Shown: piece by piece, positions 32,087 through 64,000 of the stretch
How the letters are laid out: each line of letters opens with the position of its first letter
Numbering within the stretch: the first letter of the stretch is position 1
From: Botryllus schlosseri
Lineage: Eukaryota
Assembly (NCBI GenBank): GCA_051294905.1
Contig: CM119372.1
Coordinates: 28,150,001-28,214,000 of the forward strand
Reading direction: 5' to 3'
Length of the DNA stretch: 64,000 bases
Made by a program: the position numbers and the translations under genes
The notes under the pieces: model-generated
What the model saw: only the letters and a program-made list of their open reading frames with translations
The model's database searches: none
Told to the model about the DNA's origin: nothing

Positions 32087-32518
32087 ATCGGGCAAGCAGA
32101 TTGTAAACTGGTATTCCAGCTTATGTGTATACATATGTGCCCAATGCAATATGTACTGTCAGTTCAGTAAATTGTATCATTTACAGATATGGGTCGACAT
32201 TAGCATGCTCGATACCATAAAAAGTAATGTATTTCCGTAAAGTATACATTTGCGTTTGAAGTATATTCCATTAGTCGTTTTATTGACTGTTTTATTGCTG
32301 AGTGCATCGATATATGTTAGATTTGCCAAGTTTTACTGTTTTGATATACTGTATCATGCCCACCGCTGCGTATTTATTGCTTGCATTGACCATCTAGTCT
32401 AGACACAAGCAGGTACAAAGCCATCACAAGACGTAACAAAATCAGATAAAATCATTTTGACTGACCTTTTAAAAATCTTGGAATAATTGGTGGGCTCTGA
32501 TTCCGAAATGTTATTATT

Positions 32519-38361: not shown

Positions 38362-38688
38362 CAGTGGTTCGCAACTTTTTTTTAGACACGCCCCTCTTTA
38401 GGATAGTGAAAAATTCCGCGCCCTCGTATCGTCATATTACAAGATCCAACAGGGATGCTAGCAACCCTAACAGATTGTTTGATGGCATGGAAGGTTCTGA
38501 CTGTTGATGAGAGAATTCAAAAATAAGAAACTGGGTCTATATATAGAGAAACACGCGCGAATTGGAGGTAAATCGCGCATAGCGCGAAAAAAATTCATTT
38601 GACCGGTTCTTCGCGCCCCCGCTTAAGATGCTTTCACGCCCCCCCCCCCCAACCAACGGGGGCGCGCCCCCCAGGTTCAGAACCCCTG
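38362..38688. mobile_element. Small hAT MITE, level 4 of the nest
   Basis: Ends cagtggttcgcaac / gttcagaacccctg; perfect TSD TCCTAGAG. Confidence 0.85.
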
Positions 38689-39227
38689 TCCTAGAGGCCT
38701 CATATTGGTTTGTACGAAAAGCTAGCAATCTTCTGCTTTATATGATCCCTAATTCGAGGTATACGGCATGACAATTTTCGCAGCTAACACCAAAAAGTCC
38801 ACCTCGTCGCCATAAGTGCTTCTAAAAGCGCTGGTGAATAAATTGTGACTTTCGCTTTGCAGCAGCGCGTGGGAATTCAAAAATCCAAATATATCATTTA
38901 AGTGGTGAATGCCGGTAAACCTAGTTTCAGCTTCAAGTTTAAATCTGTCCTATGCTTGAAACATGCATCGTCTAAATTCTTCAACAACACTGAGGCCAGC
39001 ATCTTCTGTTTGTTCGCCAGACATTCTCCTTTTTCTGCGAACTCTCCGAACAATCGGCCGTGACGGCTATTTCGGAGTGATTCCATCGCCATGTTAACAT
39101 ATTAATTCGTGTTTTCGGAATCAGCGCGACACTAGCTTTCGATTGAGACCTGTTTGATTAAATTTCAGCTGACGGGACGCCAGCTAAAGGACTACCAAGC
39201 ACTCTTCTTTTAGCCGGCTGTCTACAC

Positions 39228-39440
39228 GCCGCGCGAGATAGTGTAATGGTGATGCGTCCGGCTTCTTGATCGGTAGGTTGTGGGCCCGATCCCCGGCCGG
39301 GTCAGACCGAAGACTCGAAAACTGGTATCCGCGGTTATCCCGCTAGACGCCCAGCAATCACGGAGGAGAAAAAAACGGGGTGCAGACTAGATGACCTCAC
39401 TATAAAGTCCTTATCGCATCTCCGTCTTCAAACCATCACG
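39228..39440 (+). mobile_element. tRNA-derived SINE, second family (possible Meta-domain SINE)
   Basis: A-box-like tagtgtaatggtg and a degenerate B box, followed by 'gggtcagaccgaagactcgaaaactggtatccgcggttatcccgctagacgcccagca', which resembles the conserved MetaSINE core as I recall it. Confidence 0.5.
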
Positions 39441-40025
39441 ATGATGCAGGCATCTCTCTCACTGTGCAGCCTCATTTTGCCGCCCCCTTGGAGCCTGCCG
39501 CCCCTGGCGCAGAGCCAGAACCGCCAGGTGGCTGCTACGCCACTGGTCCGAACTGTCATGAAGTCAACCAGTTATATCCGAACGTATGCTCCTTTATGGC
39601 TGTTTTTATGCTGGAAGTATGCTCAAATTCAATTTGAAATCTCTTTTTCACATATAAATTCCCTCTTGTTTTTTTTTTAACTAGTTCAGATGTGTTGCAG
39701 TTCGCAAGACAATTTTGTAGTCCAGCGACGGCCTCTCAATCAAATATATCCTAAGCGAGCAAATGTTGTACTGAATCCGTCACAACAAGGCCTCTAGTGA
39801 ATGTATTTTTCCTAAATTTTCAAGTCAACATTTCCAGACAGTGACAAAATATTCCAACGACATCGATTCAAGTCAAAGAGATCGCTAGCCTTGCTTTATT
39901 TTTAGTGAACAGCTGCCTGATCGAAAAAAGACATGTTAAACTTGATGCAATGCTACCGAAACGTAATGGATGTCCTAAATTTCAATAAGCTCCAGCAGGG
40001 AATCTGATCACGTGTATGTTATATA

Positions 40026-40554
40026 TAGGGCTGGGCAAAATCGAGTACCTGAGTGATTCGATTCTGAATCACGTAAAATGCTTCGAGTCGAATCGAGTAA
40101 TCGAGTATCACTCATTATGACGTCATAGCAGAATATTATTTGTCAAGGTTCAGATATGTACCTTTCAAGCGACCACAAAGAATATAATGCCTGTTATCCA
40201 TCATGTTAAGGATACTTTGTTATTTTTTTCGACCATACCGATTTCATTGCACTTGGTGACAATATTGTGGGATGATCATGACTTCGGAAATGTGCTATTT
40301 CCAGTTACGTTCGTAGCTTTGTACTTCATGTTTCGTATGCTACGATACGGCCAATCAAGGTTTCAAGGCTTCAACAGTGAAATTAGCATGAACTCGTTGA
40401 TCGTTGATAAACTCCTCGTTGATAAATTAACTTTCGGTGGTGAGGAGCGTATAATTTCAGTACTCGAAAAAATCGTCTTTTACTACTCGACTCGAATCAT
40501 TGAAATTAATACTCGATTCAGATTCGAGTACTCGAATCATTGTGCCCAGCCCTA
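40026..40554. mobile_element. hAT-type MITE with tcgagt/actcga subterminal repeats
   Basis: TIR tagggctgggca / tgcccagcccta; perfect TSD GTTATATA. Confidence 0.88.
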
Positions 40555-40563
40555 GTTATATAT

Positions 40564-41129
40564 CAGGGCTGTAAACAAGTCACGAGGCTCCGAGTCACAA
40601 GTCAATCTCACTTTCTCGAGTCAAGTCGAGTCATTTTCAATTCACCATTGAGTCAAATCCGAGTCCAAGTCACCGAACAGAGGGTCGAGTGCGAGTCATG
40701 GTATTATAACTCGAGTCCGTCCGAGTCCAAGTCATTGTGTTGACTGCTCAGTTTCCAGTTGAGTCTTGTTAAACCCATTTTTATAACTCTGTATGGTGAT
40801 ATTGAATGATTTGGATTTATGATATACTAATTTTCCTCACTTTGAGCAGTTTCTTGTCGCATTTTCAAGTACCAAGACCAATAGACGAAATTCCAATAGG
40901 GTGATCACTTTACTGTACTTCGGAATTACAATAAAATGTCGGTCTTGGCCGTCTTATAGTATCGAGTCATATGGCATGGTTCGAGTCATGCACAATGACT
41001 CGAGTCCAAGTCGAGTCAATACACAGATTATCTCGAGTCGAGTCGTTTCCGTATTTTGAGAAAATGACTCGAGTCAAATCGAGTCATCAGAAAATGGTTA
41101 CTCGAGTCTGGTCATAGTGGTCAACCCTG
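40564..41129. mobile_element. cgagtc-rich MITE adjacent to 40026-40554
   Basis: Ends cagggctg / caaccctg; TSD TTATATAT/CTATATAT. Confidence 0.75.
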
Positions 41130-42384
41130 CTATATATGAAAGTACCAATAATATTGACCAAATGCATACGCAAACTTGAGAAAAGAATCTCGAGACCAGC
41201 AGTTATATTAGCAATTTGTACATGGTAAGCCGAAAACACAAATGGAAGTGTTGTGGGGGTCTGTTGAGTCAAGCCTTCCAGAATTTGTTTGATTGAGACC
41301 AAGACCATTGTTTTTGGAGGTCTACAAAGTGTTATTACACCACTGCTAGAAACAAACAATCGGTACCGCCCGTCTTATTCTCTCAGTCAAGAGGTGTTTG
41401 AGCGGTAAAAACGACATTTTTTAATCATCGGGCGGATTTCTCCTAAGGGGGGAATTTTGGCTTAAATTTCGGCCAAGGGAGGCACGAGATGAAAAAGGTT
41501 GGGAACCACTGCCTTATATGATCAGTTAATTATGCTTGATAATAAAGTATGCAATTGAAAAGCAAGGGCACGAGGTAACATTTTGGAATCAGTTGACTGG
41601 TCCGGACCGCGGGCTATTTGAAGGCTTAAATCCGGCCCACGGCGCAATTTGAGTTTGACACCCCTGGTGTAAAGTAAACGCATATGAATTAAAATAGTGA
41701 AAGAATCCAAGTAGTGGGTAGGATATAGATATACTGCATAGAGTGATGTCTAGAGAGTACCACAATGATCTGGACTCCTGACGTACGATGTGCCAGCTGG
41801 CAATGTTATCACATCAATCACATCAACACGCAGTCATCCGCTGGGTCTCAACTATGCATGTACCATTAGGGATAGGTTTAATATCTAATTCTAAATGCAG
41901 CAAAATTACTTTTGTCAAAATTGAACTCCCTATCTCAAAGTTATCGCAATTTGAAAATGGATATTTTGTGCTCACCCAATCATGAAATATGATTATTTTG
42001 ACATTACATGCGATATTAGCGGCGATGGAATAAAGTAGCTATGTTGTTATATTTCCCCAATCAAATGGGGTCATGGGCACTGTTCCTGCTATGCTGCGCG
42101 CGCGCGCAATTGCGCACTTCTGACACAGCATGCGCGCACTGAAAACCTGTGCTGCGCACAAGAAAAAAATCAACCCGTGGTTCGAAAAAACTAACGAATA
42201 TTATTTGTTTCGCAGAACGTACTGATGCTTATCAGAGCAAATTGACGACCCATTTAGATGTACAAATGTACATCACTAATTTGTATTCGGAAAATAGCAA
42301 TCAGACGAAGCGACGCGATCTCGTCACAGACGTCGATTTCGGCGCGAGTGCGCTGACAAAAAACATCTCACTCGATCAGGTGAG

Positions 42385-42667
42385 ATGGTGGCGAGATAGC
42401 GTAGTGGTATAATCCACAGCTGCAACACCAATGGGTTGCGGGTTCGAGTCCGAGGTCGACTCCTGAATTCCTACCTTCGTCTTGGAGTTTACCTATGCTC
42501 CTCCTCGTCATCTCATCCGTGTAAGGGTAAGCAATGTCTTATAAAAGCCTAGTGGGCCGTGCTACAAGTTGGCAGTTAGGGAATAAAAATGAAGAAAATT
42601 GACCTGGTGTAAATGACCATAGTAGTCGACAAACACCATGAATACGGCAAACAACAACAACAACAAC
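42385..42667 (+). mobile_element. tRNA-derived SINE family A, full length (~290 bp)
   Basis: A box tagcgtagtggt (~42396), B box ggttcgagtcc (42441), (caa)n tail; at least six copies in the window. Confidence 0.85.
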
Positions 42668-42708
42668 CCCCCGACAAGATATACGTCTTAAAACTAAATA
42701 CTGGAGTA

Positions 42709-43670
42709 GGGGAGATGTGGTACCGATGGATCAAAAATTGGAAAATGATCGCTGGCCCCAAAATGTTCAGCCGAAATCAGCAGATCTTTTGCTGGCTCAG
42801 CACTTTGATACAAGCTCTACCTATCGCGCACATATACATGAATATCCGTCTTTTCAAAAAATATTTATTGACGTTCAAAATTTGTTGCTCGAACGTATCA
42901 TTGGTCCCCACCCGGTGGGTCCAATGGCACACGACCCGGGGACCTATGAGACATATACTCTAAAAAACTCAGATGTGACAACATTTCTTGCTCAGTATTT
43001 TAATCTAAGCCACAGCAAGCAAAAGAAGAATGTTTGGTCGCAACCGTCAAAAAATAGAATAAATATTAACTCAAATGTTGTCATAAAATCACGTTTCGAT
43101 TCAGGCACGAACTTAAAAATTTGAGGGTACATACATTTTGCCCCAAAATCGACAGTGTGACTTCCAAATACCTCGTTATAGCGATAAAACATCATATGCA
43201 ATTATTACATAAAGATTTTCTGTACGTAGGCATGTTTTATTTGTTTCATGATTAGTATGCTTGATTATTTCGCTTGATTTGGCTATTGTATCATCGGTCC
43301 CCACCCTACGAATTTTATACATGAATAGAAAAAAATTCCACGCAACGAAGGTACCGAAAAAAATAATAGGTGCCATTATATAGCCTGATACAAGCCGTAC
43401 ACTACACAATGAAAATGATTGCTGGTTTGTTCGTGTTGAAGGTTACAAAGAAAAATGTATATGTCGATCTAAATTTAGTTTACACCCCCCAAAACAGAAA
43501 ACATCTGTCAAAGACTTCATAGCTCGCGCACGTCGTGATTTTTTGTATGTGAAGAAAGATTCTGCCAGCATGCAATTGTAGAGAAGTCCACGGAGTGTAA
43601 TCATGGAATTATCATAGAGAATTTTCAAAGTATTTTCGGTCCCAGTGATCCATCGGTACCACATCTCCCC
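42709..43670. mobile_element. Non-autonomous DNA transposon with perfect 25-bp TIR and TA flanks (Tc1/mariner/pogo-like)
   Basis: ggggagatgtggtaccgatggatca ... tgatccatcggtaccacatctcccc, flanked by TA on both sides. Confidence 0.8.
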
Positions 43671-44391
43671 TACATTACAGATCTTCATTTGTCACTTACC
43701 TTCGAAGTAGTCTGACATGCCTAGGGAGCTAATACTTTAACTACTACTGCTAATACTTGCGTAGCGATATGCTGACTGATTTGAACACACTTGTAGCTTA
43801 GGTGCAGAGTGTAAACATTATTATCCAACTGATTGAAACTAATAAAGGTAACGTTTCTGTACTTAACAGGTAGTACGGTAGCTGTGTCACTAATATTTAT
43901 ATTTTGTGATCAAGATCAAGTGGAGATTAAGACGCTATTAGATGCTGACTCACGATGGCTTCAGAAACTAAGTCTGCTATTACATTGACCTGATGACAGA
44001 CGTAAATCATAAACGTTAATTGACAGTAAACCTAAATTGACGTAAATTCCCAGCAAATTAGGAATTGGTTGCGATACTGTGAAAAACAAGAAATTACGTT
44101 TTAATCCTATACATGTATAATCTGTGCTTTTAAAGATCCACAGTCACCCACTCATTTATCCGTTTATTTATATTTGCATCAGTTCAAAACGACACAAGAT
44201 TGCGATTCAGTGAAAAAGAAGGAATCGATGTAAAGTGGAAAAGTCTTTCAAACAAACACCCACCCTGGCCAACAAAAAATATTAAAATGATAATAACAGG
44301 TAAACCATCCATCATTAACGTACATACTGAATAAAAAATAACAAAAGAAAGCATAAAATAGTCAAGCAGCAAAAGTTGGCACGATATAGCG

Positions 44392-46387
44392 CAGTGATTC
44401 CCAACCTTTTCGGATGTTGGAGCCGCATTTCAAACTTCAGAGTACGTATGAAGCCGCATGAAAACACTCGAGTATGTAGTGGATGACGAAAATTTAATGG
44501 TAGCTAGTCTAGACTAGGGTTGCCATACGTCCGGAATTTCCCGGACATGTCCGGAATTTCACTGTTCAAACTAGCGTCCGAGAGGAATTTCTAAAATATG
44601 CCAAATGTCCGTAATTTTGAAGACTTGACGTAGGCTCATAATTTTTTCGTAAATCAGCATAAAAACAATACTTTTTGAGAATATTTATGCTGATGCATGA
44701 TATTTTTCTTCGCGCTGCGCGCGATTTACTGTCGCATTTATTGATTTTCATATGGAGACTACCAACCGCGCAAAAACTGCAATAAAATATAAATAAAAAC
44801 AACCTTCATTTACTGGAATAAGCCTAATTGTAATCGCAATTATAGGAGAACGGTATATTCCTAGAGATCGTTAAGGCCGTTTAAATGCTTTATTCAAAGA
44901 TAGTGGTTCCAAACGGGGGGTCGTTTGCCTTGATTCTGGGGTTTGCGAATATGTTGAACGTAATCAGCTTCCAAAATAGCCGTTGAGTAAGTCTGAACAA
45001 AGGTGCTGACTTCTTTTAGTTATAAGCTCGTCAAATTTTGATCTGGGCCACGGAACATTTTCAAATTGGAGATGGAGTCGCGACCATAAAAGGTTGGAAA
45101 CCACAGGATGTGGGGTGTTTATAAAGCTCCGTGGTGCGCACCGGCATAAGGCTGATAAGCAATCTTATCGGTAGGACATGAACATGACTTAACGATGTGC
45201 AATTACGCTACCTGTATTTTTGAACTCATTATCCTCCACCAGATCATGTGGGCGGAGAGTAGTATCTAATCGTTGGGTTATAATTTTTATCTGAACAAGT
45301 CACACACAACATACAATGCGATAAGACAGAATGCGATGTAATGAACAGATAGGAGGAAGGATATCAAACGACACGTAGATGCGATCCTTTTTAGACTGAC
45401 ATCCACCTCGGCCTAGAGTGCCCGATGTAACAGTTATTTTCGATGTTGATCTTTTAAAGCCGCGGCCCGTTCTAGTTCTTTCCATTCCTTGTGAGTGCTT
45501 TCTTTGGTCGGGTCTTTTTCTGGGCTTTTTTATCGCCGTAAAAACGGCGACGGCGGGGAAAGAGGGGCCCAGATGAGCCTCCGACGGGAATCGAACCGGT
45601 GCCGTACGATTCGTGGGCGCTTATCGTTAAGACACACAGCCACATACTCCTGAACCGGATCGTGACCACCTCTATATGGTCTATAAGCAACGCTTTGCTA
45701 GTGTGACGTCATAACTCATTTTGAAATTCACCAGTGGGCGCTAAAGAGTGTCCGGAATTTGGGTTGCTGAAATATGGTAACCCTAGTCTAGACTACCTCT
45801 GGATCTCACCATCCAGCTAATTCAAAAGCATGCACATAGACTTGTGTAGATTCTTTATCGGTTATTTTAACATTGATAGACGCAGATTGGCGGGTGCTAT
45901 ACATTAAAATAAACTGAAAATGCATATCGTCGCTACAACATACTATATATGTCGTTATATGGTAGCTCTTATACATTCCAGCACTTAATGTACAAGTTTG
46001 AGGGCGATTATACGCTGAGTATTATTGGTAATATTGCAATTTATACTTGACTATGAGCCGTTACTTGAGTCAAAATTTACTCTTCACATAGACGATCTAT
46101 AAAGTTCTATGACCAGCAGAACTCAGGATAGGCCAACATCATTGTCTGGCAGGTATTCATCCATGCGTTTGAAGCTAGCTTGCAAGAATTCTCTTTCCCC
46201 GTTTTCAGAAGCAGCCTTGGGCGGCCTTAGATATAACTAATATCCCATTTTTAGAATTCATGTACGGAAATTGACTATCACCATTCACAGACACGACCAA
46301 CAACTGTCTATTATATGTTGGTGGCATCTTCCGAGGTCAATCAGAGCCGCAAGGACGGTAGTTTGGAGCCGCGGTAGGGAATCACTG
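44392..46387. mobile_element. hAT MITE hosting 44515-45785
   Basis: TIR cagtgattccc / gggaatcactg; flanks ATATAGCG/ATGTAGAG (6/8); gagccgc subterminal motifs. Confidence 0.75.
44515..45785. mobile_element. tagggttgccata-TIR MITE (sister of 25291-28566)
   Basis: TIR tagggttgccata / tatggtaacccta; perfect TSD GTCTAGAC. Confidence 0.9.
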
Positions 46388-46784
46388 ATGTAGAGTCTTG
46401 ATCACGCAATTCTGTTTTCGTAATTGTAAATCAATTGGACTTCATGGCGTTTAAAAGCGGGCTAAGAAGGTTTTTTCGAAAGAAGAGCTGAATAATTTCA
46501 CAAATGAAACTAAATATTTGCGGTTTGCTGGATCTGTGAGGACAGTCTGGTACACAGCACTACACGCATATGAGCAGTTCACGAATGCGAAATTGCTCCA
46601 AGGCTGGGAATGCTATACGTGACACAATGCGTTACAAGATGATGCGAGGTTCTTTATATCAGCGGAAGCCTGCAAAACTAGTCGTATGCAGATCGGTCGT
46701 TGCTACCCTTCAAACATTCGGTCGGCATTCGGGTGCTGCATTCATAGCAATTTCGTTGGTTCAGTAAATCCATTTCTACTTCTA

Positions 46785-46945
46785 TATAAAATTGATTAGT
46801 ATATTCATATTGAAATGAACCCGAATATTTTCGGCTGACACTCGTCACGGGTAATCGTCAGCGACTAGTAAAAAATTGGAAAGAACATTGTCATCCGAAC
46901 ATATTCGGGTTCATTTCAGTGTGAATATACTATTATATTTTATAT
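46785..46945. repeat. Imperfect inverted repeat (~55-bp arms), probably a small fold-back MITE
   Basis: tagtatattcatattgaaatgaacccgaatattttcggctgaca ... tgtcatccgaacatattcgggttcatttcagtgtgaatatacta. Confidence 0.7.
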
Positions 46946-47287
46946 TGAGGTAATATACCTCCAAGAAGCTCTTCAAATATTTCTATTTCCACTTATTGCA
47001 GTTGTATTCGGCCATTCCTCCGACGATTTGTCGCGGGTATTTGATTGATCAAAAGCAGTGATTCTCAACCGCGGCTCCAATTGACGTTTGAAAATCTCTC
47101 AAAAATATTAAAAAATGGAATTATAACAAAAAATATTCAAAAATTACCCTTGCTTGGCTTGGACACTGGAGTTTATAATTAAGGATGGAGCCCAATTCCT
47201 CTGCTGTCGAGTAGTGATTCTCCAGTCAGCACCTTCTTCGTTACTTAACTCACGCCAACTACTACTACTACTACTACAACAACAACT

Positions 47288-47645
47288 TAGGATTACTATA
47301 TTTTGGAAGCGGGAAAGGAGGACACTTTTTCAAAATTTTTAAACTTAAAACAAAATTCAACTTCCTCGCTCAGCGCACAAAATACAGTTTTTTCCTCCAC
47401 ATTAAGAGGTAGTTGACTGAAAAAAAAGTCAACTTTCCGGCTCAGCTCCCGAAATACCCGCCTGAGCGTTAGTTCAGTGCTGCTTTAAGATATCTCAGTA
47501 GAATTTGGAGCTATGTTTAACCAAAATTCTCAAAAAAGAGGACAAAATCTCAAAAATAAGGACATTTAGGCGTCCTCGGAGGAAATTTTTAAAAACGCGA
47601 AAAATGAGGACAAATTCTACTAAAGGAGTACGTATGGTAACCCTA
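47288..47645. mobile_element. Inverted sister of MITE 36237-36559, inserted in a (cta/caa)n microsatellite
   Basis: Reverse-complement homology to 36237-36559; ends taggattactata / tatggtaacccta. Confidence 0.7.
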
Positions 47646-48107
47646 CTACTACTACTTTTCGGGGCAATGTGATAAATGAAACTGTTTCCAATATCTCAGG
47701 TGTTTTTCCAATATTAATAAACCCTCAGATCGTATGTAAAGTACTGGTATATTTATCATCGTTTTGGTAAAGCATAGTATACCTACTTATTATACGATAC
47801 TCCCAAACCACGTTTTCAAAGGCAGAGAAGTCGGGGAAACGATGGTGTGAACCCGTAAAGAAGGGATATCAAACTCAATTTGTGCCGCAAGCTTGATTCA
47901 CAGATGACGTGCCAGATCAGTCAATTCATGCGAAATTGTTACCTCCAAATCCATACCTTCGTTTTTCACTGGAATGCTTCATTATCAAGCCTATGTATAA
48001 TAAATAATATCACGGATAATCGAGGCTTCATTCTTACGACACATTTATTCGCAAATAATGGAATTGGCAAAAATACGTTGCTTGTCCGATTGAATACAGT
48101 TCAAAAA

Positions 48108-48615
48108 CAGGGGCGGGCAACATACGGCCCGCGAAGGGATTTTAGGCTGCCCGCAGATACTTTCCGGTCTCGCATGATAATGTGGCCCGCTGCCGGAGAA
48201 AGGTGGCCAAGAAACTACTTGTTCTGTTCGGATCCATACACATTTGCGAGCAAATATTTTCGACCATGACAATGAACAGACAAAGTTGCGTTTCAATCTA
48301 ACTGATGCTCACGTGCAGTCTTTACCGAGGGTTTCTGCGTCCAGCGTTCAAAGATCTTGACGACAACTTTGTTCGACCACAGATCTCATTGACTTCAACA
48401 GGCATTGAAGTATATTACGTTAATAAATTATTTAAATTACTGTTTTTGACCTCTATGCTTTCAACTTAAAATTCCCATTATACACGATTTATTCCTTGTA
48501 TAGGTGGATAAATAGCCTACCTACACGATTACTGTATCGATTTAGAAGTCCGGCCCGCAAGTAGCTCATTTTTTTCTATATCCGGCCCGCCGACTGGAGA
48601 AGTTGCTCGCCTCCG
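48108..48615. mobile_element. hAT MITE (caggggcgggcaac TIR), relative of 55549-57082
   Basis: Ends caggggcgggcaac / gttgctcgcctccg; the right part matches the reverse complement of 55549-55680. Confidence 0.7.
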
Positions 48616-50844
48616 GTTTAAAGCCACTAAAACGTGAAAGTATTTCTTATTAAAATTTCAACTTTTGATATGACGTTGTCTAATTATGCCATAATTGTGT
48701 AAATTCACCCGAAAAACCATGGACTACCGGCAATTTGCACCCAAAATAGTCGACCTATACGATGTGGGGTGGCTGGAACCCTCGAAATCGTCGTCGGTTC
48801 AACAGTTTTTGCGCGTAAATATAGATCATTGGTACGGTATGGGTTTTCTGCTAATGATGACCGACGACCGTAAAAATGCTGCATAACGATGCAGTCCTGG
48901 TTAAAGATATTTGTGGTCTGTTTATGACAGTGATCGGAAGCCGTTTTCGACGAAGGAGCCATATTCACCGTACATTTTCAATTGTCAATGCCAATCCGCT
49001 GTGACGTCACAATAAAATATTCGTGACGTCATGGCTACAAAAAAATTAAAAAACATGTTTATAAAAGGGCCTTGTTTTAAACATGTTTGTTTTAAATTGA
49101 TTTTTGTTTTAAATGCAACCCTAGGCATGATGCAAATGAACATTATAGGCTAGTCGACAAACACCACGAATACCACAAACAAACAACCGAAAACTCCCTT
49201 CGAGAGACGCACTTGATTCCGAATTCACATTTCATTGCGGGGTGGATTTGTACCGTGGGGCTCCTATTACAGGGAGAGGACTATTAGTCGCCGGCCATTT
49301 CGGCACCTGGACTTATAAATAGTAAATACCGACGATTTCGGCCAACATGTGGCGGCCGTTTGAGCCAAGATTGTATCGCCACTAAACTTTTGGCAGTGCT
49401 CCCTACCCCTTTGAGGGTGATACCTGCTGTTTGGGTGCGGCAGTTACGGCACTGATAAATAGTGTTGACAGGATACTGTATTGAGAGAACATTGGTTTCA
49501 TACGAAAGGTGTCAATCATGACGATATGAAGAATTGGTGGAATTTCGCATCATGATGTTGTAATCAAATTCGAAAGGATCTGGGGTAATGTTGGGCTGCT
49601 CATGGAATCTTCTGGGCCCGGGAACAACTAGGAAACGCGGGCCCCCAACAGTCCCATATTTTTTAGGAATTACCAACTCTGCTACTGTGTGGGAAGATAT
49701 TCTCATGATCTCGCTTAGATATATTTATAACTGTAACCCCAATGTTTCTCTTGTTCCAAATATTTTTGCGTGCGTTTTTGTTTCAGTCTACGTCGGTATT
49801 CTGGTCGGGATAAGCGATCTTGAAAATGGGTGAAGCGGTCTCAATCAGATTGACAAAGAAAGGGGCATGGATGCGGGAAGGCGTATCCTACAAGCCCCAA
49901 TACATACATTGGAAATGAAGTCAGCCTGATAGTAGCAGAGAGAATTAAGACTGAGCAATCCTAGAGGTTTACCGTACCAGTTACAACGAAACACCCAAAT
50001 ACGAAACTATTATCTTGTTTTCCAAAGCGTCGCAACCAATTTGTTATTTGTTGCTGATTTTCGGTTATTAACGGTAACACGGGTTCACGTTTAAGATTTA
50101 CGTCTGGTAACGCAGGATCATACAACAGCTAGAGGACTTTGTTTTCTGTAGCTATCGTGAGTCAGTATCGAATGTTGTAATCTCGACTTGATCTTGATTG
50201 CAATATAAATATTACTGACTTAATTACCTCAATTACATATGTAAAGTACAGCAACATCATTTCTTTAGTTTCTATCCGTTGGATATTATTTATGCTTTGC
50301 AGGTCAGCTATATATATATATATATATAGCCTATATATGGACCTAATCACCACAAGAAGACAGCGTCCTTAAGGAGCCTAAATCAATAGAGGGCTGTGCT
50401 ATAATTGGTCGGTCAAAATAGATCCAGCCCGAAACGTATGAGGCTGGTGAAATTCATCGTAGATAATGAACATGGTGAAATTGAGACAGTCATAGAATGA
50501 CATTGAATTTCGAAAATGATTTCATCATACGCGAAATTGATTAGCGCTGATCACTGATCAGTCAATAAAATTACTCAGGGGCCGACTCTCGTTCATCGTT
50601 GCATCGTTCGTGATATAATTTGGCCTTCTCTAAGGAAGCAAAATACAAATGGCACCTTTATTGTGAAAATCTTCCACGTTAGACCGATACTACCGAATAT
50701 CCATGAATTTCAGCAAGTCTACGAGATTGCATTTATCAAGAAAGGATAGATGTATAGCATTACTTTTAGGCGGTATGCGTTGTGATAATTTAATATTCGA
50801 AAAGAGGTAAAATAATGAAATTCGTAACAGTTTAGAAAATAAAA

Positions 50845-51987
50845 ATGTTCTGCATTGTGTTAGTTGCAATTGCGTTGTTGTTTCCATGTACGCAAGGACA
50901 GCTGATTGGACACTCTTGCACGGTTTCATGTCCTGGAAAACCTGTCTCAGGGGGGACGAAGGAGTGTAATTGCAACGGGCTTGCAGACGAACTCGGCAGC
51001 GTCCGGTTTTCGCTACATAAACTGACAAGTAAACTTTTGCGTTGTGTAATATTGGTTTAGCGTGAAATCCGAAGCAATATAATCGATTAAATATCACTGA
51101 ATTAACATATCTAAATCTATACTCTACGCAGGCATTGTACTCGCTGAATGGTCAAAGGCTAACAACGGTCGCTGGTACAGAATGTTCCGGAAGCCGGAGA
51201 CGTTTCAGAAGGCAAGGGAGATCTGCAAGCAACATGGTGCTCATCTGGCTTCTGCTGGAATGAAGAACCTCGCCGACATCAGGTAGGACTCTATTTACTA
51301 ACCCAGCAACCGCATGTTATTATTACCATCCGGCTACCACCTCAGTTTTATAAAAAAAAGTTCCAAAATGGTGGTGCCATTTCGAAACTTGCGTTTACTC
51401 ATTCCCAATTTTCTTCTTTTTTATCAGCGCTATCGATTTATCACTTGCATTCTGCGTCGAATTTTGACACATTTTAAGCAGTATATCAATGCGTTTCGGT
51501 AATGTTTTCCCGCTAGGCGTCAGGCACTCCATTATTATCATCGTAACACAACATTAGCGTTTATTGCCCATCGAAGCTATGTACACCAATAGTGTAAGTT
51601 TATAGTCTCCCTGTCTTTGAGTTCGTAATGTAGAAGTATATTTGAAATTTCACAACCTCTATATGCTATTTACTCCCGAGGCATATTTCGCCACGGTAAT
51701 TCCTGTCACCGAATACTTTAATAATACACTCCTGTTTCAGAAAAATCATACGCTTGGTTGGCATAAGAAATAATGAACAAACGTGGATCGGTCTTAGTGA
51801 CTTGGAAAGAGAAGGAACATGGGCGTGGGAAGACGGCTCCTCCGGGCCCGTTGTCAATTGGACGCCCGCTCAACCTGACAATCACCTCGGGAAGGAGCAT
51901 TGCGTTCATTTTTGGAGCAATTTCCAATTCAATGATTCAGTGTGTGACGCTGAAAAGAATTTCCTGTGCGAAACTGACGTATTTTGA
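50845..51987 (+). CDS. Secreted C-type lectin, 193 aa, 3 exons (50845-51028, 51132-51282, 51741-51987), QPD (galactose-type) motif
   Basis: Signal peptide MFCIVLVAIALLFPCTQG. GT-AG introns have compatible phases (1 and 2), giving one frame. CTLD motifs: 'WYRMF...TFQKAREICKQHGAHLAS', 'TWIGLSD..REGTWAWEDG', 'NW.PAQPDN..EHCV..FND..C..NFLCE'. AATAAA lies at 51999. Confidence 0.92.
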
Positions 51988-52258
51988 TTGGTTGTATTAA
52001 TAAATTGCATGACGCTGTAACGTTAATGCATGTGTGTCTTAGTGCGTCGGTTAAATACGCATAGGGGAACTCAATATTTATGAAGGTGCAAAAACTATAT
52101 GCGGTGACAGCTAGACATGTGAAATTGCAAAACCAGGCGAATCATACTCTGTTATGTGACGTCACAATTAGGTACTGCTCGTGATGGTGCTTCGACCTAA
52201 CATAACCCTAAAAAATATCCCATGCAAGAAACGGGGTCAAAGTCAGATAACTCATAAC

Positions 52259-53460
52259 TAGGGCGATTTTTTTTTGACCTAAAAAACGTAAGATTTTGAC
52301 CTAAAAAATCTAAATTTTGACATTTTTTGACCTTAAAAAACTAAATTTTGACCAAATTTTGACCTAACGTATGCAAATTAGGTGTTTTCCCAAAAAATGT
52401 TAGAATTTTACTACTTATCCTCATTTTTGGTTTGAATTGTCTGTCCTTTACGAAGTAGTTTTCCCTGAAAAACTTGTTTGACTCAAAAATTGACAAGTTT
52501 TTACATGACGAAATATTATTTTAACAAAATTTAGCCCTATGATGAATTCCAGTACATGATGTACTATGGTGAAAATAATTAAAAATTGTTGTAGTACAAC
52601 GAAATATACTTTCCGGCATTCTCGGCAGGGATATCTAGATATCTAGTTCTAGATATCCCTGATTCACGGGTAAAAAGTGTCTGTCTTTACCAAGCTTGCC
52701 AAGGATGAAGATGTGGCGAGATAACGTAGTGGGATAATTCACAGCTACAACACCAATGGGTTTTAGGTTCTCGTCCGACCCAGGTCGACTCCAGAATTCC
52801 TACCCAAGTGCTCCAGAATTCCACCCAGGTTTTGAAGGTTTATCTAGGTTCCTCCTCGCCATCTCATCCGCGTAAGCGGTGTCTTACAAAAAGCATAGAA
52901 GTGGGCCGTGCTACAAATCGGCAGATACGGAATCGAAAATAAGGAATATCGGCCTGGTGTAAATGACCATTGTAGTCGACAAACACCATGAATATACAAA
53001 CAACAACAGCAAGAAGAATGGAGAAAGAACGTTCAACTGTAGTAGCTATTGGCTGGCAACACTGAAGTTGTGCGTGCGTACACTGGTGACACACCGTGTT
53101 GCTTCATTCTGACAATGGTGTACATCTCAATTTTTGTAAGAACCATGCAATGCCCACGCAGTCTTGCTTCACTTAGAATATTGCGGTAAGCTTAGCATAA
53201 CACCGTGTCAACGTATTTGTTTCATTTGACTGTTTATGATTCACAATGAGCAGACAATGCGCCGTCTGCCACGGTAGGCCTATAAAGTAGGCTACAAACT
53301 GTAAAATATCAAACGATAAGTTCACCGATTGTGCAAAATCTACGATACAAATAAAATGCAGGTTGCGAAAAATTCTGTCAATTTTGACATTTTTTGACCT
53401 AACGCTAAAATTTTGACCTTATTTTGACTTTTTTTGACATGTCAAAAAAAAATCGCCCTA
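52259..53460. mobile_element. hAT-type MITE with a nested SINE and mini-hairpin
   Basis: TIR tagggcgattttttttt / aaaaaaaatcgcccta; perfect TSD CTCATAAC. Confidence 0.9.
52710..53013 (+). mobile_element. tRNA-derived SINE family A, full length
   Basis: Homologous to 42385-42667; flanks AAGGATGAAGA/AAGAATGGAGA; empty site 'ccaagaatggagaaag' in the sister MITE at ~32880. Confidence 0.85.
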
Positions 53461-54671
53461 CTCATAACTCTCGAATTTTATTTCATCTCAACAAGCAAAT
53501 GTTGTGTACGATACTGAATATGCCATACGACTCCCACATTTGTCTCGGTATTTCTTGGAGATCGCTCCGATTATAGACAAAAATCCGTTTCAAAACAAAT
53601 TCAAAACATGGCCCTTGTTTAAAACATGTTTTTTTATAGTTTTTTAGCCATGGCGTCACGAATCTTTTATCTTTTGGCTTGGCTATTGTAAATATAGGGT
53701 GAATATGGCTCCTTCGACGAAAAAGCTTCCCACCATCTGTCATAAATAGTGGACCAGGACTATCGTACCAATGATATTTAAGTAGCCTACATGCTATGCC
53801 TGTTGAATCGACGACTATTTCGAGAGTTCCAGCAACTCCATAACGTATACATTGACTATATATTGGATGTAAATAATCCGGCTCATACCACATGTTTTTC
53901 GACACAATTATGTTATAATTAAACGATGTTTGAAATTTTTTTAAGTGTTTTTTTCAAAGGCATTTGTTCCAAACAAAAACTGTTTTACGGTGAGAATCAC
54001 GTGATCGGTAGTCGATATGTCGAGACCTGCGTAATTTCCTGAGCAGCCAAACGAATAAGCCGATGCACAACACGGCAACGCTAGTTTATATCCTATATGT
54101 TGGTGAAGCTATAACACCCAGAACCGAAGTATCACTTCGTCAGCCCCCCCCCCCCCCCCCTCTGATCATCTTCGGGCGGACGGAACCGTTGGTATATTGA
54201 CTTCGTTACATGCTGTTATTTCGTGACCTCCTGTCTGCTATATCAGGAGATATTGAAATCTCCCAAATGTACTAAACTAAAAGACGAGCACGATTCAAAA
54301 TTGGTATTTTTTCACTGGCAAATAATTTGTCCCTTCGGATGGCATTTGTCTTGTGGGGTTAAGCAGATTGTCAGGACAGCAACATTCGGCGCCAGCCATT
54401 TAGGCGCCTATATGGACTATTAAACATGTATGTAGGCCTATATATATCGAAGTTTATGGTCAGCATAAGTGCAGTCCTTCTCGGCCAAGGTTTTCTAGCC
54501 AGGGCTTTGGAGCAGCCGTAAAATTGCATTGCTCCAGCTCCGGCTCCGGAGCTGCCTTCTGTCATAGATTAGCTCCGGATCTAGCTCCGGAGCCACAATA
54601 TTACCACTGCTCCGGCTCCAGCTCCGGCTCCGGCTCCGGCTCTGAAAACTATCGAATGGGCCTGTATACAT

Positions 54672-55377: not shown

Positions 55378-55824
55378 GTCTATATAGATTACTAATCTAC
55401 ATGTAGGTTAGTTATATCTAGTAATCTAGTGTCCGTTAGCTGTCGGTAACATCGGATGCAGCAACGAAGACATAGGTGTCGCAGTGCAGGCTTGTGACGC
55501 CACAATGAATACTTGTCAATTGTCGATAACAGCATTGTTGCACTAGAACAGGGGCGGGCAACTTCTCCAGTCGGCGGGCCGGATGTAGGAAAATTAAGTA
55601 GGCCTACTTGGCGGGCCGGATAGCTAAATCGATGCATTATTCGCGCATTTATTAACATATACAAGGAATAAATGGCATTTAATGAATATATTGTAACGAC
55701 AGCAATGTCATTTCACAGCCATTTCTCGCCGATAATGACGAAGACAATGTGGATTTGGGAACACCATTGTCATACAGGCGCCGTCATGTCTGCTTCTCTC
55801 TGATCAATCAACACATGGTGCAAT

Positions 55825-56415
55825 TATAGAAATTAAACATGGAACGACAACGACCGATTTTGCAGCTTCGTTCCGCTTCGCCGGGGCTGGAGTGGAGAAT
55901 TGTTTTGCGTAAGCGCCTGTAGGATTTCTGGCAATCCAAAAGCTATCTTCCCGAACGCAGAAATTATTGAATCTGGTCTTGATCGAAAGCTACTGTTGCA
56001 CGGATTCCGAAAATATACATTAAAATATTGATCAGGCACTGATCCATCTAGAATCTGTCCTCCAAGTCTGAAATATCGTCATTGTTTAGAACAATCGGGT
56101 AACCGCAACACAATGACCATAACAATGACCCGTTGCGACTCTCCGATTGTTCGAACAATGCCGATATTTCAGACTTGGAGGACGGATTCTAGGTGGATCA
56201 GTGCCTGATAATTATTTTACTTTATATTTTCGGAATCAGTGCAACAGTAGCTTTCGATCAAAACCAGATTAAATAATTTCTGCGCTCGGGAAGATAGCTT
56301 TTGGATTGCCAGAAATCCTACAGTCGCTTACGCAAAACAATTCTCCACTCCAGCCCCGGCGAAGCGGAACGAAGCTGCAAAATCGGTCGGTGCCGTTCCA
56401 TGTTTAATTTCTATA
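55825..56415. mobile_element. Fold-back MITE, P-superfamily-like (TATAGAAATTAAACATGG termini)
   Basis: ~285-bp inverted arms with a ~22-nt spacer; perfect 7-bp TSD GTGCAAT; an empty-site homologue is at ~8730-8780. Confidence 0.9.
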
Positions 56416-56489
56416 GTGCAATCCTTAATTAAGATTTCAAGGCGCTCGATAAGCCCGGTACCCAAATTTACCAAGATATCAATTAATTA

Positions 56490-56720: not shown

Positions 56721-57689
56721 CATTAGGGTTGAGTACATCGCAAATGCCAAGAGGACTTACATTATCGGCATTTACGGTTCTATACCAATACCGAGAAAAC
56801 CGTTACCGATAATCGACATTACCGAGAACGGCCAATGCCAAGAATCTAACTTACTGAGAAGGCGTTGTCGAGAAATTTACATCTGAGAATTGACACCGAA
56901 TGGGGCAAAGTCACATACATTGCATTCTCGGTAATAGCTTTCTCGGTAGTGGTTTTCTCGGTATTGACCGGACACCGGCCGGCGGGCCACATTATCAACT
57001 AAGACGGGAAACTCTCCGCGAGCCGGACAAAATCCCTTCGCGGGCCGGATCCGGCTCGAGGGCCGTATGTTGCCCGCCCCTGCACTAGAACGCACTTTGC
57101 TCCATGCCATTGCTGTGTACAGCATTAAAATTCTGATGCGGCGTTTTTTCACACTGTCACTGTACTCGTTAACATTAAGCCATGTACACTGTACACTGTG
57201 CCATGTACATTGCGCCGTGCCCGTAACGAATTAAACTATGCACATTTACTAGTCACAGTGCACGATAGTTCGGGAATAACAGAATATCAAGCAGACATCA
57301 AGAATGAATACACGAAACAGATGATTACAAATTGGTAGCTCGTACCAGAGTTGGATCAATTGTAATTTGTAATTGTAATTGAATGTAATATATTACATTT
57401 TTCTATGTAATTGTAATGTAATTATAATTGAAGCATTTTTATTTTGTGTAATTGTAATTGTAATTGTAATTTGACAAAAATTTTGCTCAATTACAATTTC
57501 AATTACATTAAATTGCTATTGAGACCTGACAAGCACAACATAAAACAATTGACTTATAATGCATTCTCTTTAAATGTCGACAAGGAATTTGGTGGATCCA
57601 TTCCTGGAAGCCCTTGACTGCGCCCTTGCGGGCGAAGTGTTTTATTTATTTTTACCGCTATGCTGACCTCGGCTGCCATAGTATACAAT

Positions 57690-58250
57690 TTTTAGATTAC
57701 TAACCAACGGATGGATTCGCAACACGTGACTCACGATTGAATACGCCGAGAAGCGAACTGCTGAGCCGGCTAAAAGCAGCAGAATTGATATTCCCATACC
57801 TGGCGATCCAAGCGTCGAAATTTGATATGTATGGTCCTAATCGAATGCTAGTGTCGCACTGATTCCACAATAAAAGTATATTTCCAGGCAATGATACCAT
57901 CCCAAAATAGTCGTGAAAGTCTGGGAATCGGCATTGTTCTGAACAATCGCTGGGCGTAATTGGTAATTGTTGTGGTCATGCTGCTGCAGCGCTCTCACTT
58001 TTCAGAAGAGTCGGCCTTAAACGGCTATTTTGGAGCAGTTACATTGTCCTGACGAGATTTTATTTTGTATTTTCGGAATTAGTACATCAATAGCTTACGA
58101 TAAAGACCAGATGCATCAAATTTGGACGAATGGATCGCCAGCACTAGGACTACAAAGTTTGCTGCTTTTAGCCGGCTCTGCAGTATGTTTGTCGGTGCAT
58201 TCATCCGTGACTCACATCTTGCGCATCTATCCGTGGGTTGGCAATCTACA
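57690..58250. mobile_element. Old, diverged fold-back MITE (TATAGATTACTAACC-type termini)
   Basis: Degenerate ~200-bp inverted arms (e.g. gagccggctaaaagcagca / tgctgcttttagccggctc); flanks ATACAAT/ATACGAT. Confidence 0.7.
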
Positions 58251-58616
58251 ATACGATTTCAGATCACGATGCTGCATCGTTATTTCGTCTGGCTAACTAA
58301 CCAGACCACTGGATATTATATAACGTCTTATCTGACAAAGCACGGTTTTGTTTTCACTCCTCATCCTAATTCCTACGTCCCTCGATAAAAATAATATTAT
58401 TTCTTTAATTATATAGCCTACTATAGACGCAAATCCAACACGTGCATATATTATAATAGTTTTTCAACGACATACTGCACCCTATCCTTAATCCTAACCC
58501 ATAGGAAATTAGGTAAATAACATTTTACATTTCCAATCATGTGAGCCATAATTACCGAGCATTCAAAACACGCTTATATTACGCCACAATGACATCTCAC
58601 ACAGCATACTATGTAC

Positions 58617-58662
58617 TATAGATTACTAACCTACGTACCGTACCGTAGGTTAGTAATCTATA
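58617..58662. repeat. 46-bp TSD-flanked mini-palindrome (putative excision footprint)
   Basis: 19-bp perfect arms TATAGATTACTAACCTACG, filler TACCGTAC, perfect 8-bp direct repeat CTATGTAC. Confidence 0.8.
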
Positions 58663-61574
58663 CTATGTACGCACATAAACGCTTTTATTACTACACAATC
58701 TGAACTAGACTTGAATTGTTGTTAAATACGACGCTACGGTTGTCAAGGAGCACGGTTGAATTTATGATTATTAAATTACATGTTCAACAGCAGCAATTGT
58801 AATTGTAATTGTAATGTAATTGAAGCATGCAAGGAGTAATTGTAATTGTAATTGTAATTTGATATTTTTAGCATGGAGTAATTGTAATTGTAATGTAATT
58901 GAAACATTAATGAAAGTAATTGTAATTGTAATTGTAATTGAACTGAAATAATGTAATTGATCCAACTCTGGCTCGCACCGCGACAATTGTTTGCTCAGCG
59001 TTCTGGCGTTCTGGGATACTCTTCTGCCATCCCCTATTCACGCTCGAAAATCCTTGCTGGAGTGAATGACGATCATTCGCAGTAATCAACTCCAATTCGC
59101 AAGCGCATACAAAATAGCACTGTCCAATTTCGCGCCCCGATTAAAAACAACTATCACGAAAGAACGAGTGTTGGCTCATCCGATTCATAGCAGCGATGAG
59201 ATGGAATTTCACGGCGCGTGCTCATCATATCGACATGAGCAATGAAATCACGTTTTTATCCTCTGTACCATTTCGCGTAATACATAGTGATCATTATTTT
59301 CGAACCGTACGATTGGCCAACAAGGTTGAGCTGATGATGGAATTGCGGGTATGATGAATACCCACAATATTCACAGGCATATATCGCATACCGAGGCTCG
59401 GCGCTCATGTTAGGAAATTGAACATTGAATATATGACTGCTCTGCTGTAAAATCCCCAGGAAAAGGTAGCGCCAAAGAGGCAAAGATTATTAATTTCGCC
59501 AAGGCCTGCTGTTGAATTATGTGAAATCAGCAGATATGGTTGTTGCTTATATAATATCATCTTATGAAATACGTCGGAGCCGGAGCTATTCCTCAAATAA
59601 CTGGCTCCTGCTCCTGCTCCGGCTCCGACTGGATTTTATGCAAAGTTCCGGCTCCGGCTCCGATGAAAATGCACGGCTCCGGAGCTCCGGCTCCGGCTCA
59701 AAAGTCCTGTTTCTAGCTGCCGATCGTTCTGGCACACTTCTTGCAGTCGCATGTTACATGGTCTACTAAAACTTTATGTCTTGGTGCGTCGTGGCGCGAT
59801 AATGACCGACGCCGAAATTCCCATTTCTATAAATCATGCGTATTTTTTTTCTTGGAGAAACAGTACCCAAAAACCAAGATATTTGGAAATATTAAATCGC
59901 ATGCCGCGCGAAAAAAGTTTGAAAAAGTCGTCAAAATTTCAAAAAAATACTCTATAATTTATGCTAATTCACGAAATAATTTTTGGCCCCCTTCGGGCTC
60001 GACACATTATGGATGCATGTTGTTATTTCGTGACTTCCGGACAAGATTGTCGCTACTCACTTGATATAGGTATCGTTCACACGTACTTTACGAAACTAGA
60101 AAAACTCTTTTTCTGAGACGGACTCGATTCTAAATTCGCATTTCCCCAAAGGCCGCAATATTTTACTCTCAAAGTCGCATTTATATCGCTCGCCTCAGAT
60201 TGCAGCGACAGGGCTATTTAGCGCCAGCCCCATTTCTTTTTGGCCTTATATTGAATCGCATCTCGTACCCCCTACAATAGTGCTTCTCACCACCAAGGGG
60301 TCAATGTACCCTTGAGCAAGAACAGCTGAATTACGATCTAGGCACGCAGGCGAAAGATTGCTGTAATTTAGATAGGGGTGAACTGGTGAAGATAATGCCA
60401 TTTGTACAATGACATTGTATTATCACGCCGTGTATCTTAACGATGATTCATCTGTTTTTACCTATAACAGACTCATATCAGTACCAGACTCCTATGAGTT
60501 TGATAGGTGCCTAAGCACAGCAACTATTGAAACCGAAAAAAACTCAGTATTGAAGAATAAATGTCGCTCTATAGTGAGAGCACAAGAAGTATTTACTTAA
60601 TTGTACAAATTCCAAGTTTCTTTTGCATGGTTCATTGTGCTGTCATCGAATTGTATTATCTTCAATCTCCCATTACTTCAAATACTATGATCTAAGAAAG
60701 TTCATATCTTGACATTTCTATACCAAGTCTTTACGTCTTAAATCAGATATTTCGAAGTCACTACGAAGTCAATATTGTTTTTTGTAGTTCCCGGCAAAGT
60801 CAGTTCATGCAGTAGCGCAAACGTACGGGCCCATTGAAGCATTGTGTTTTGTGGATTTAGCCTTCAGTCAGCGTTGTTAGTTTTTTCCATAAATGATTTT
60901 CTGCCCAGCTAAAAACTTTTAGTTTTTGATTTCTGCTGTTTTGTGGTGTACTTTTATGAAGTGGGAATGTACAGTTTCGGCCCTTCATGTATTTGGAGAA
61001 TTGCTTTAATATTTTAACCCTATATGTGTGACTGTGTGTGTTAGATATTAATACAGTGTCGTCGGAATATGGTACATTATAACTAACCGGAAGGTTATAT
61101 GCGTTCTATGTGATCAGTACCAATTGCTGCAGCATAGCACATCTGCAAATACTTAAGTACACAAAAGTACAGTGTTTTTAATGCGTTGTCTGCCTTTACA
61201 CATGACTATGAATGAACAATATATTTTCCGCTTTATTCGGACAAAATCGTGTCACCGCTCTATTGGTCAAGATTGGGTGAATTCACAGTGTCCGAATTAT
61301 GCGAAGTCGTCTGTATTCGGTGTATCATACCCCTGCAGGCATCATGATGTAAATATTTGGTTCCCGGGATATATTTACACCTAACACAAGACTATAGGTA
61401 ACTTGCTTGACTGCTACATATATTGCTCGATTCAGTACATATGTATCCTCGGCTTGACGGTTACTTTCCCAATTCCCATCGTCAAGCTAACGAGTAACCA
61501 ATATAATACATCCTAACCTAAGCCGTCGTTATTGTGAGACTACTTGCTGTAATATGTCTATGCAACAAGTAGCC

Positions 61575-62200
61575 TGTGGGATGTTCCTCACTTGTGCGGA
61601 TGAAAAAAATTGCAGTGCTGATGACAAACTTGGTGCGGATGAGTGCGGATAAAAATTCGGATGGGTGCGGATGGAATTCGTAAATAATAATTGTTGCCGG
61701 ATCCGGCCCGCGACGGGATTTTGTCCGGCCCGCGGACAGTTTCCCGTCTTAGTTGATAATGTGGCCCGCCGGCCGGTGTCCGGTCAATACCGAGAAAGCC
61801 ATTACCGATAATGGACCCCACCGAGAAGGGACATTACCGAGAATGCAATGCAGGCATGTTATGCATATATACAGGTCGTGTGTTTATGCATGAAGGCTTT
61901 GCTGCATTCGGTGTCGATTCTCAGCTATAAGTTTCTCGACAACGCATTCTCAGTAAGTTAGATTCTTGGCATTGGCCGTTCTCGGTAATGTCCATTCTCG
62001 GTAATGGTTTTTTCGGTGTTGGTATAGAACAGACATGGGGTAATCGTGATTAGTAATCGTAATCGATTACGGCGATTACAGCATTTTCAAGTAATCGTAA
62101 TCGCAATCGATTACATTCGAAAAAATTCCGAAGTAATCGTAATCGTAATCTACTACTTCCCATATCTAATCGATTTCTCTGTGAAAGAACGATTACTTTT
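61575..62200. mobile_element. Cluster of MITE ends (gcggat repeats; taccgagaa family; gtaatc repeats)
   Basis: 61695-62030 is the reverse complement of 56775-57055; a new end starts at 62030 (cagacatggggg followed by gtaatc repeats). Confidence 0.65.
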
Positions 62201-63634
62201 TATTTGTACAAGGATTATGACATAAACTGAACATTCGTGAACAAGGAAAGATGTTATACCAGGCTCGTGACAGCACAAACGTCTGGTTTTCAAACGCCAC
62301 CGCTCATTATCATCATCATCATCATTGGTTCATTATTACGTCAGAAGCAGCCTATTAGCTTTGCGCGTCATTGTGTAAGAAGTATCCACAGTAAATAGAT
62401 ATTCGATGTACCTACGTCGTCCATTAGTATGATTATAAGAACACCCGCCGTGCTGTATATCAGGTTATCAACGCGTTCCACACGCCTACCTTGCAGCAGT
62501 ATAATTTATCTCCGCTCTGCCTATAGTTTAAAATAGTAACTTATGTGTTGATGTTTGGTTATGCTTATGCTTAGTTAAACGCAGTTTGACCGTTGCTGCT
62601 TGGCGAGCAGTAGGCCTATCCAGTACGTACGTACACCGGACAAAGATTTGAAATTTTCTACTCGTCAAATAAAACATTGCGGTTTCCACAACGAAGCAGT
62701 AAAAATCAACAGCTGGTGATATATACACTGTAAAAAATCTGGTAGATATACTGGGAAATCTCTGTAAATTTTACAACGAATTACCGGTCGCAGCCAATAA
62801 CTGTGCGTATAGCTTGTAATTTTATATTTTGATATGTAATATTACCTTAGTTTAGCTGTGAAGTCAAGTTACCAGAATTTCTTCGCAAAATTACTGACAG
62901 TTACTCGTAACTGCAGTTTACCAGGCTATTGGGAAGATTGATTAGCTTCATAATCGCTGCAGCCAATATATACGTGGAAATGAATGTTACTGATATATCA
63001 TTCTCGTGGTGATTTGACTTGATTCAACCTCGTTCGCGAAACTGGGGTCTGTCGTACGGAAATTGTTGGCCCTAATAGCAATTTCAGTATAGTACATAGT
63101 AGGGTACAAGAAACAACTGACAATCGTAGCTAATGTGGTTACGCCATAGCCATTATATTATATTATAATGCTATATGGCTATACGGCCGTTCTCGCTGGT
63201 TACATTCGTTGTTACGGATAGGGCTGATAAGTTAGGAAATCAGTTAACGTTATATAATATTGTTCGGGAAACTAGAAATATCAGCACCGCATGCTCAGTT
63301 GACCATTTGCTAATGGCGGACAAGGCGACCTGTAATAGGTTACAATAGGTTACCGTTACGCGTTACTGGTTTTCTGAGATTCGTAGTAAACAGCCAACGC
63401 ACAACTGTGACATCACAAGCAGCGTCTCGTTTAGTAAGTACAGTAAGTAGTGAACAACACTTGGGATAAATATCTATTTATACGAAATTAGATGGAAAAG
63501 AAAGAAACTGTATGTAATGATAAATGTTTCTGCATGAAAGAGAAATAACCCAAGTCAAACATTATAACGTGGCCAGTAAATATTATTGGTGGTATGTCAG
63601 CGGATGAATACGACTTATTTCGAAATCCTTCGAG

Positions 63635-63654
63635 TATAGAAATTAATTTCTATA
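63635..63654. repeat. 20-bp TSD-flanked palindrome made of the termini of the 55825-56415 family (putative excision footprint)
   Basis: CTTCGAG-TATAGAAATTAATTTCTATA-CTTCGAG. Confidence 0.8.
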
Positions 63655-64000
63655 CTTCGAGTGTCGTATCGTTGTCTGGCCATTATTGAGATTTGAGCAA
63701 AGGGTGGGGCGAAGCTTGTTGTACTTGAAGAAAGTGGACACGATCGTGGAAGATTCCTAGGAACGCTGAATGGGATACGCATCGTAAAAGGTACAGTACT
63801 ATATAGTATTTGCTACCGTGAATATCCGCGACTGTGCAATGTGCACACCACTTTGATTTCATTCTCCGCATTCTCTGTTCTATTTTGGGATATTAGTCGA
63901 CTTATATAGTGACCTGTGACACCACATACTCCGTCGCGGAGGAATTTAAACTGTTGGCTTGTTTATGTCATTTTCGGGCCATAGCATAGAGATGTTTTCA

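Follow-up and report, generated by a model that had tools for sequence, protein, structure and literature searches.

The 34-base site at positions 63628-63661 of the window (the whole 64,000-nucleotide stretch of DNA analyzed here) is almost certainly a real transposon remnant, and it was probably produced by a P-type staggered excision followed by end joining. This remnant, referred to as scar 1, carries the tips of a fold-back element (family A) that is present in the same window, and it is now inert. A second clean remnant (scar 2) was found in the sister family C, thus the motif of scar 1 is not a one-off. We infer which enzyme acted at the scar sites, that its cut was staggered, and how the ends were repaired.

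The 34-base site and its parent family

By direct reading, scar 1 consists of CTTCGAG / TATAGAAATTAATTTCTATA / CTTCGAG, and its core is a 20-bp perfect palindrome (Table 1). The end of element A matches this core over exactly 12 nt from each side, the two matches overlapping in TTAA. The join point is not fixable: the splits 8+12 through 12+8 yield identical letters. The letters, the 7-bp duplications and the 12-nt tip match to element A given by the first-pass annotation were found to be exact, and its description of the site as a family A remnant at a former insertion site is borne out by the tips and the 7-bp duplication. The same annotation took element 55825-56415 for the full-length form of the transposon; as this element is non-coding, it is one member of the family rather than the autonomous full-length form. 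Other boundaries (a TAG end with a TA duplication, or a 9-bp repeat) were tried and rejected, as the perfect 7-bp repeat fits both family A sites.

The agreement between scar 1 and element A is far beyond random expectation. The 20-mer is expected in 7.9e-7 copies by chance in the window, and together with the 7-bp flanking repeat in ~6e-11. In 15 shuffled windows, the cores flanked by 7-bp repeats pair over 6 bp at most, against 10 in scar 1. The terminus of element A, searched in the 64 kb as an exact 10-nt or a near-exact 12-nt string, was found only at the two ends of A and of scar 1. In viral contigs, the two 10-nt tips gave 61 matches (some redundant), of which six, also with some redundancy, are the very 20-mer of scar 1; a flanking 7- or 8-bp repeat (at most one mismatch) was present around none of the 61. 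Family A tips can thus occur by chance in AT-rich DNA, but not with the duplication. The 18-nt end of family A has two viral matches, which were set aside as they show no further likeness.

Four of the 24 read runs were mapped onto 58300-64000. Coverage is deep at both scars, which lie in repeated DNA. The summed contig depth over scar 1 (run X1) is 37,000-54,000, compared with 10-36 in nearby low-depth bins, hence the host sequence is repeated; no paralogues of the scar flanks were found within the window. Among the contigs listed for these four of 24 runs none spans scar 1 or scar 2, and the reads resolved neither an empty nor a full nor any alternative allele; one contig (run X20) has a joint over scar 1, at 63592-63677, for which the letters between are not given. 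A full fold-back collapsed during assembly or library preparation would agree with scar 1 being unspanned among those contigs, but the fold-backs with 95% and 99% complementary arms were assembled whole in the same window and the other remnants carry filler or age-related changes. Such an artefact, or the chance origin weighed above, is therefore very improbable. The repeated host sequence could also suit a 20-mer formed once and then spread, either as a tiny mobile unit carrying its own duplication or by being copied along with a host repeat. To this we give hardly any credence, since 20 bp is far under the ends required by the P element in D. melanogaster (138 and 216 bp; PMC1562414), and the two remnants of family C differ in both their centres and their flanks.

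Table 1. Positions of the scars, the fold-back elements and the hAT-type remnant within the window.
Feature	Positions	Strand	Remarks
Left copy of the 7-bp target-site duplication, scar 1	63628-63634	.	CTTCGAG
Core of scar 1	63635-63654	.	12-nt family A tips fused on the shared palindromic TTAA
Right copy of the 7-bp target-site duplication, scar 1	63655-63661	.	CTTCGAG
Scar 2 with duplication, family C	58609-58670	.	core 58617-58662
Third remnant, family C, degraded	55383-55430 (end approximate)	.	
Fold-back element A with duplication	55818-56422	.	nested in hAT-type element 55549-57082
Fold-back element B with duplication	18736-19334	.	related internally to A and C
Fold-back element C with duplication, degraded	57683-58258	.	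tip family is that of scar 2
Further member of the fold-back group, fragmentary	39045-39219	.	without ends
56-bp remnant with hAT-type ends	14796-14867	.	core 14804-14859; outside the fold-back family

Fold-back elements and sister remnants

Element A (55825-56415) is 591 bp long, has arms of 262 nt that are 95% complementary, and is flanked by a perfect 7-bp duplication, GTGCAAT. It folds as one hairpin, with -308 kcal/mol and a z value of -48.5 against 100 shuffles, and no Pfam match was obtained in the seven of its 23 short frames that were scanned. Element B (18743-19327, 585 bp) has arms of 272 nt, 99% complementary, and a 7-bp duplication with one mismatch, while element C (57691-58250, 560 bp) has arms of 177 nt and an 8-bp duplication with one mismatch. 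Elements A and C start with TATAG and element B has CATAG ends; the zebrafish element Pdre2 starts with CATAC (PMC10983969).

The between-family pairwise identity of A, B and C is 48-55% over the aligned arms, and A and C are 74.5% identical over 165 nt. A block of ~60 bp (~55965-56035 in A) is conserved in the arms of all three elements and in the fragment 39045-39219, whereas the tips differ. This internal block, common to A, B, C and the fragment, places them in one group, with duplications of both 7 and 8 bp. The block is possibly a protein-binding site. A coding remnant was considered for it and rejected, as stops occur at one position in four of the seven rows and no Pfam match was found; the block shows a weak 3-base periodicity (2.7, 1.9 and 3.9 differences per column over 46 columns).

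In scar 2 the core of 46 bp is composed of a 19-nt stub, a 7-nt filler and a 20-nt stub; the stub lengths come from a comparison with one degraded parent, in which positions 2 and 16 differ. The filler copies letters of the adjoining stub, i.e. it is templated, and the duplication is perfect and 8 bp long, as in family C. The third remnant has stubs of ~18 nt on both sides, with 10 extra letters on the right, and no duplication was found at it; a microhomology join or CpG decay could each explain its centre.

A census of the A, B and C termini in the window gave three elements of 560-591 bp and three remnants of 20-48 bp, with no copy between 48 and 560 bp. A preferential loss of long perfect palindromes may, however, have hidden intermediates, since it too would spare short remnants alone. 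Tiny remnants make up three of the six members of the fold-back group and one of the 14 hAT-type elements, with the two classes told apart by their end letters (Fisher p 0.06); without the degraded third remnant the fold-back count is two of five and p rises to 0.15, so the excess is a trend only and not significant.

A tolerant scan of the window for scars returned nine matches, compared with 0-3 in eight shuffles. The nine comprise the two scars (one counted twice), four matches in short tandem arrays, the hAT-type remnant 14804-14859, and 52626-52661. The last is a 36-bp near-palindrome with CAGGGATATCTAGA (CAGGG) ends and an 8-bp duplication with one mismatch; it is possibly the scar of another family, and no parent for it was found in the window. 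A 28-bp near-palindrome with GGGGCC ends lies at 18110-18137 between 9-bp repeats (one mismatch), and may be a remnant of a family with 9-bp duplications or a product of chance. The scar pattern of family C had no match in the genome and viral contig collections, which hold no DNA of the host organism. One metagenome match (L062) was dismissed as chance, since it is a 32-bp palindrome without duplication and matches nothing in the window.

Overall, the window resembles animal DNA, is rich in repeats, and contains a cytochrome P450 cluster. An intron-less P450 frame of 526 aa lies on the minus strand at 12990-14570 (Pfam p450, E 2e-96), and three partial, frame-broken tandem copies are located near 19345-19996, 22683-24430 and 30456-32158. 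Positions 48955-53712 are occupied by a 4.8-kb element that has long inverted ends and is flanked by a perfect 9-bp duplication; by the length of the latter it is Mutator-like. A fragment of a C-type lectin (Pfam E 1.6e-14) lies inside it, at 51700-51984. A repeat of 280-335 bp is present twice in inverted orientation, at 56777-57055 and 61696-62030; the two copies are 4.6 kb apart, and no duplication was found at their outer ends.

Origin of the scars

In the proposed sequence of events, a non-autonomous fold-back of family A would have inserted at 63628 and created the 7-bp duplication, the tips and the duplication being what is seen of this step. A P-superfamily transposase encoded elsewhere would have excised the copy with a long stagger, and each flank would have kept a 3' single-stranded tail with the first ~17-20 nt of the element, both steps being modeled on the Drosophila mechanism. 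Such tails would be identical in sequence, so that pairing would be possible only at self-complementary words. They may have paired at TTAA, and trimming of the flaps and joining of the ends would then give the 20-bp palindrome that is observed. Scar 2 may be the outcome of the same event in family C, mended with the short templated filler in the manner of polymerase-theta end joining, for which the filler is seen and the enzyme is putative.

The P reading agrees with the architecture of the sites. P-superfamily elements carry terminal inverted repeats and duplications of 7 or 8 bp; here, the arms measure 262, 272 and 177 nt, and the duplications are 7 bp in A, scar 1 and B, and 8 bp in C and scar 2. 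The combination of 7, 7 and 8 bp in the related elements A, B and C supports the P superfamily, since the latter mixes both lengths. Scars 1 and 2 both retain two copies of the duplication and stubs of both ends, as a P footprint does. Joining of the A arms at microhomologies of at least 4 bp is possible in 235 ways, and in only four of these, scar 1 included, does neither stub exceed 17 nt; when the near-symmetric joins are considered, the fraction is 4 of 21, again with scar 1 among them. Scar 2 has filler rather than a microhomology join, and therefore points to free DNA ends 19-20 nt inside both tips, which slippage alone does not predict. The stubs of scar 1 (12 nt at most) are within the 17-nt Drosophila value, while those of scar 2 (19 and 20 nt, against the degraded parent) are above it, so the cap near 17 nt per side that the first-pass annotation had expected appears not to hold for family C.

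Against the P reading, no transposase is tied to the ends of A, B or C, family A contributes one remnant (n=1), and a deletion between the two TTAA words would account for scar 1 alone equally well. No match to a P or THAP family was obtained in 157 of the 158 frames of at least 72 aa in the window. The earlier identification of a P-type excision footprint is supported by its shape, which is that of the Drosophila P junctions, and by the 7- and 8-bp duplications, and falls short in the linked transposase.

Between 3358 and 58970 there are 13 elements of hAT type; they are 0.5-4.6 kb long, have 8-bp duplications, and several are nested. In the 56-bp remnant at 14804-14859, ~40 nt of one hAT-type end are joined to ~18 nt of the other, between copies of a perfect 8-bp duplication, hence tips and a duplication can arise without P. 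The earlier statement that hAT and Tc1 excision leave no such stubs is correct for direct end joining and overstated with regard to abortive gap repair. In the latter process, the transposon would be excised cleanly by an enzyme of any cut-and-paste superfamily, the copying back from the sister chromatid would stop within a few bases on either side, and the ends would be joined. An example of a candidate enzyme is presumably found in hATw, a hAT subgroup with 7-bp duplications; the excerpt of PMC12905397 contains nothing on the hATw duplication length. With the hAT duplication of 8 bp (PMC4423477 table), an ordinary hAT parent of family A disagrees with the 7 bp at both family A sites.

Abortive gap repair, leaving microhomology or filler junctions, is an explanation put forward for Ac, P, Tc1 and Mutator alike (PMC3814204), and would account for stubs longer than 17 nt. 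In the window it is supported by the hAT-type remnant, which shares its ends with element 37629-41511, in which a hAT dimerisation remnant is found (38070-38309, E 2.7e-05). As an origin of the fold-back scars we nevertheless regard it as rather unlikely: it predicts unequal and widely varying stubs, such as the ~40 and ~18 nt of the hAT-type remnant, and the fold-back remnants are near-symmetric, with at most 20 nt per side and no intermediates among six copies. The first-pass annotation had also named continuously distributed stub lengths as a refutation of P. These would not be sufficient by themselves, because wild-type flies mostly repair P excisions by partial copying and subsequent end joining (PMC2895639).

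The hairpin of element A is very stable, and slippage between TTAA words, or nuclease opening followed by chew-back of the stem, could therefore yield scar 1 independently of any transposase. The microhomology at TTAA is symmetric and belongs to the 21 near-symmetric joins; the geometry of a stem makes its chew-back symmetric as well, with short remnants as the stable end state. A precedent would be the nearly precise excision of Tn10, a phrase absent from the literature matches listed. We hold such a collapse to be unlikely, since stubs of 40-252 nt, of which none is seen, are expected from 17 of the 21 near-symmetric joins, scar 2 carries filler without a microhomology join, and three long fold-backs survive in the window.

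If P-type staggered excision is retained, the remnants might further be read as a fossil record of the cut depth of a P-like transposase in a non-insect invertebrate. We put this forward as a doubtful extension. The cut depth would then be at most 17 nt for the 7-bp family and ~19-20 nt for the 8-bp family, i.e. the long stagger would be conserved across the P superfamily yet family-specific. A stagger of 17 nt is documented for the Drosophila enzyme (PMC7776569). A sharp, family-specific edge of scar lengths, if true, would make the long stagger general to P-like transposases, would help to place gene-less fold-back MITEs in a superfamily, and would render past excisions countable; scar lengths would in that case give the cleavage geometry of uncharacterized P transposases without biochemistry. 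The single 34-bp site is ordinary, and its worth is that of one data point in a scar survey.

Comparison with known systems

Palindromic remnants of another kind are known from bacteria. Nearly precise excision of Tn10 likewise reduces a long inverted-repeat element to a short palindrome between its target duplications; it differs in being bacterial and transposase-independent, with one fixed join and no filler expected. The derivatives attributed to abortive gap repair, Ds-like elements and Ozma MITEs, resemble the scars in keeping the ends and the duplication around a microhomology or filler junction, but they are usually much longer, asymmetric, and extend beyond the outer 20 nt (PMC3814204).

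Within the P superfamily, the duplication is 8 bp for P and 7 bp for 1360 and Galileo (PMC3698922). Galileo (with Kepler and Newton) and 1360/Hoppel, likened here by description, share the 7-bp duplication with family A. Galileo is a fold-back of the P superfamily, with long arms and many copies made of the two arms only (PMC2775673, PMC3573991). The two-arm copies of Galileo average 1.7-2.2 kb, compared with 560-591 bp here, one of its subfamilies has internal tandem repeats, and the accounts excerpted from the same two papers describe no remnants of 20-50 bp. In the case of zebrafish THAP9, excision and deletions are reported, and the excerpted text of PMC10983969 gives no cut position, which its figures or supplement may contain. 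A literature search, mostly outside subscription papers, found no paper on naturally occurring P-type footprints from tunicates or from other marine invertebrates.

The closest likeness is to Drosophila P. Its transposase cuts one strand at the end of the element and the other 17 bp inside (PMC7776569), and excision leaves 17-nt 3' tails on the donor (PMC2895639). The published junction tables, which come from Rad51/pol-theta mutant flies, list the order duplication, stub, microhomology or filler, stub, duplication (PMC2895639). The scars described here have both copies of the duplication, short stubs of both ends, and a join at a self-complementary word or a templated filler, as the fly footprints do. 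Unlike these, they are natural genomic fossils and not products of an assay, the duplication of family A is 7 bp, and the stubs of family C reach 19-20 nt. The form of the scar is thus already known from flies, and scar 1 is one more example of it.
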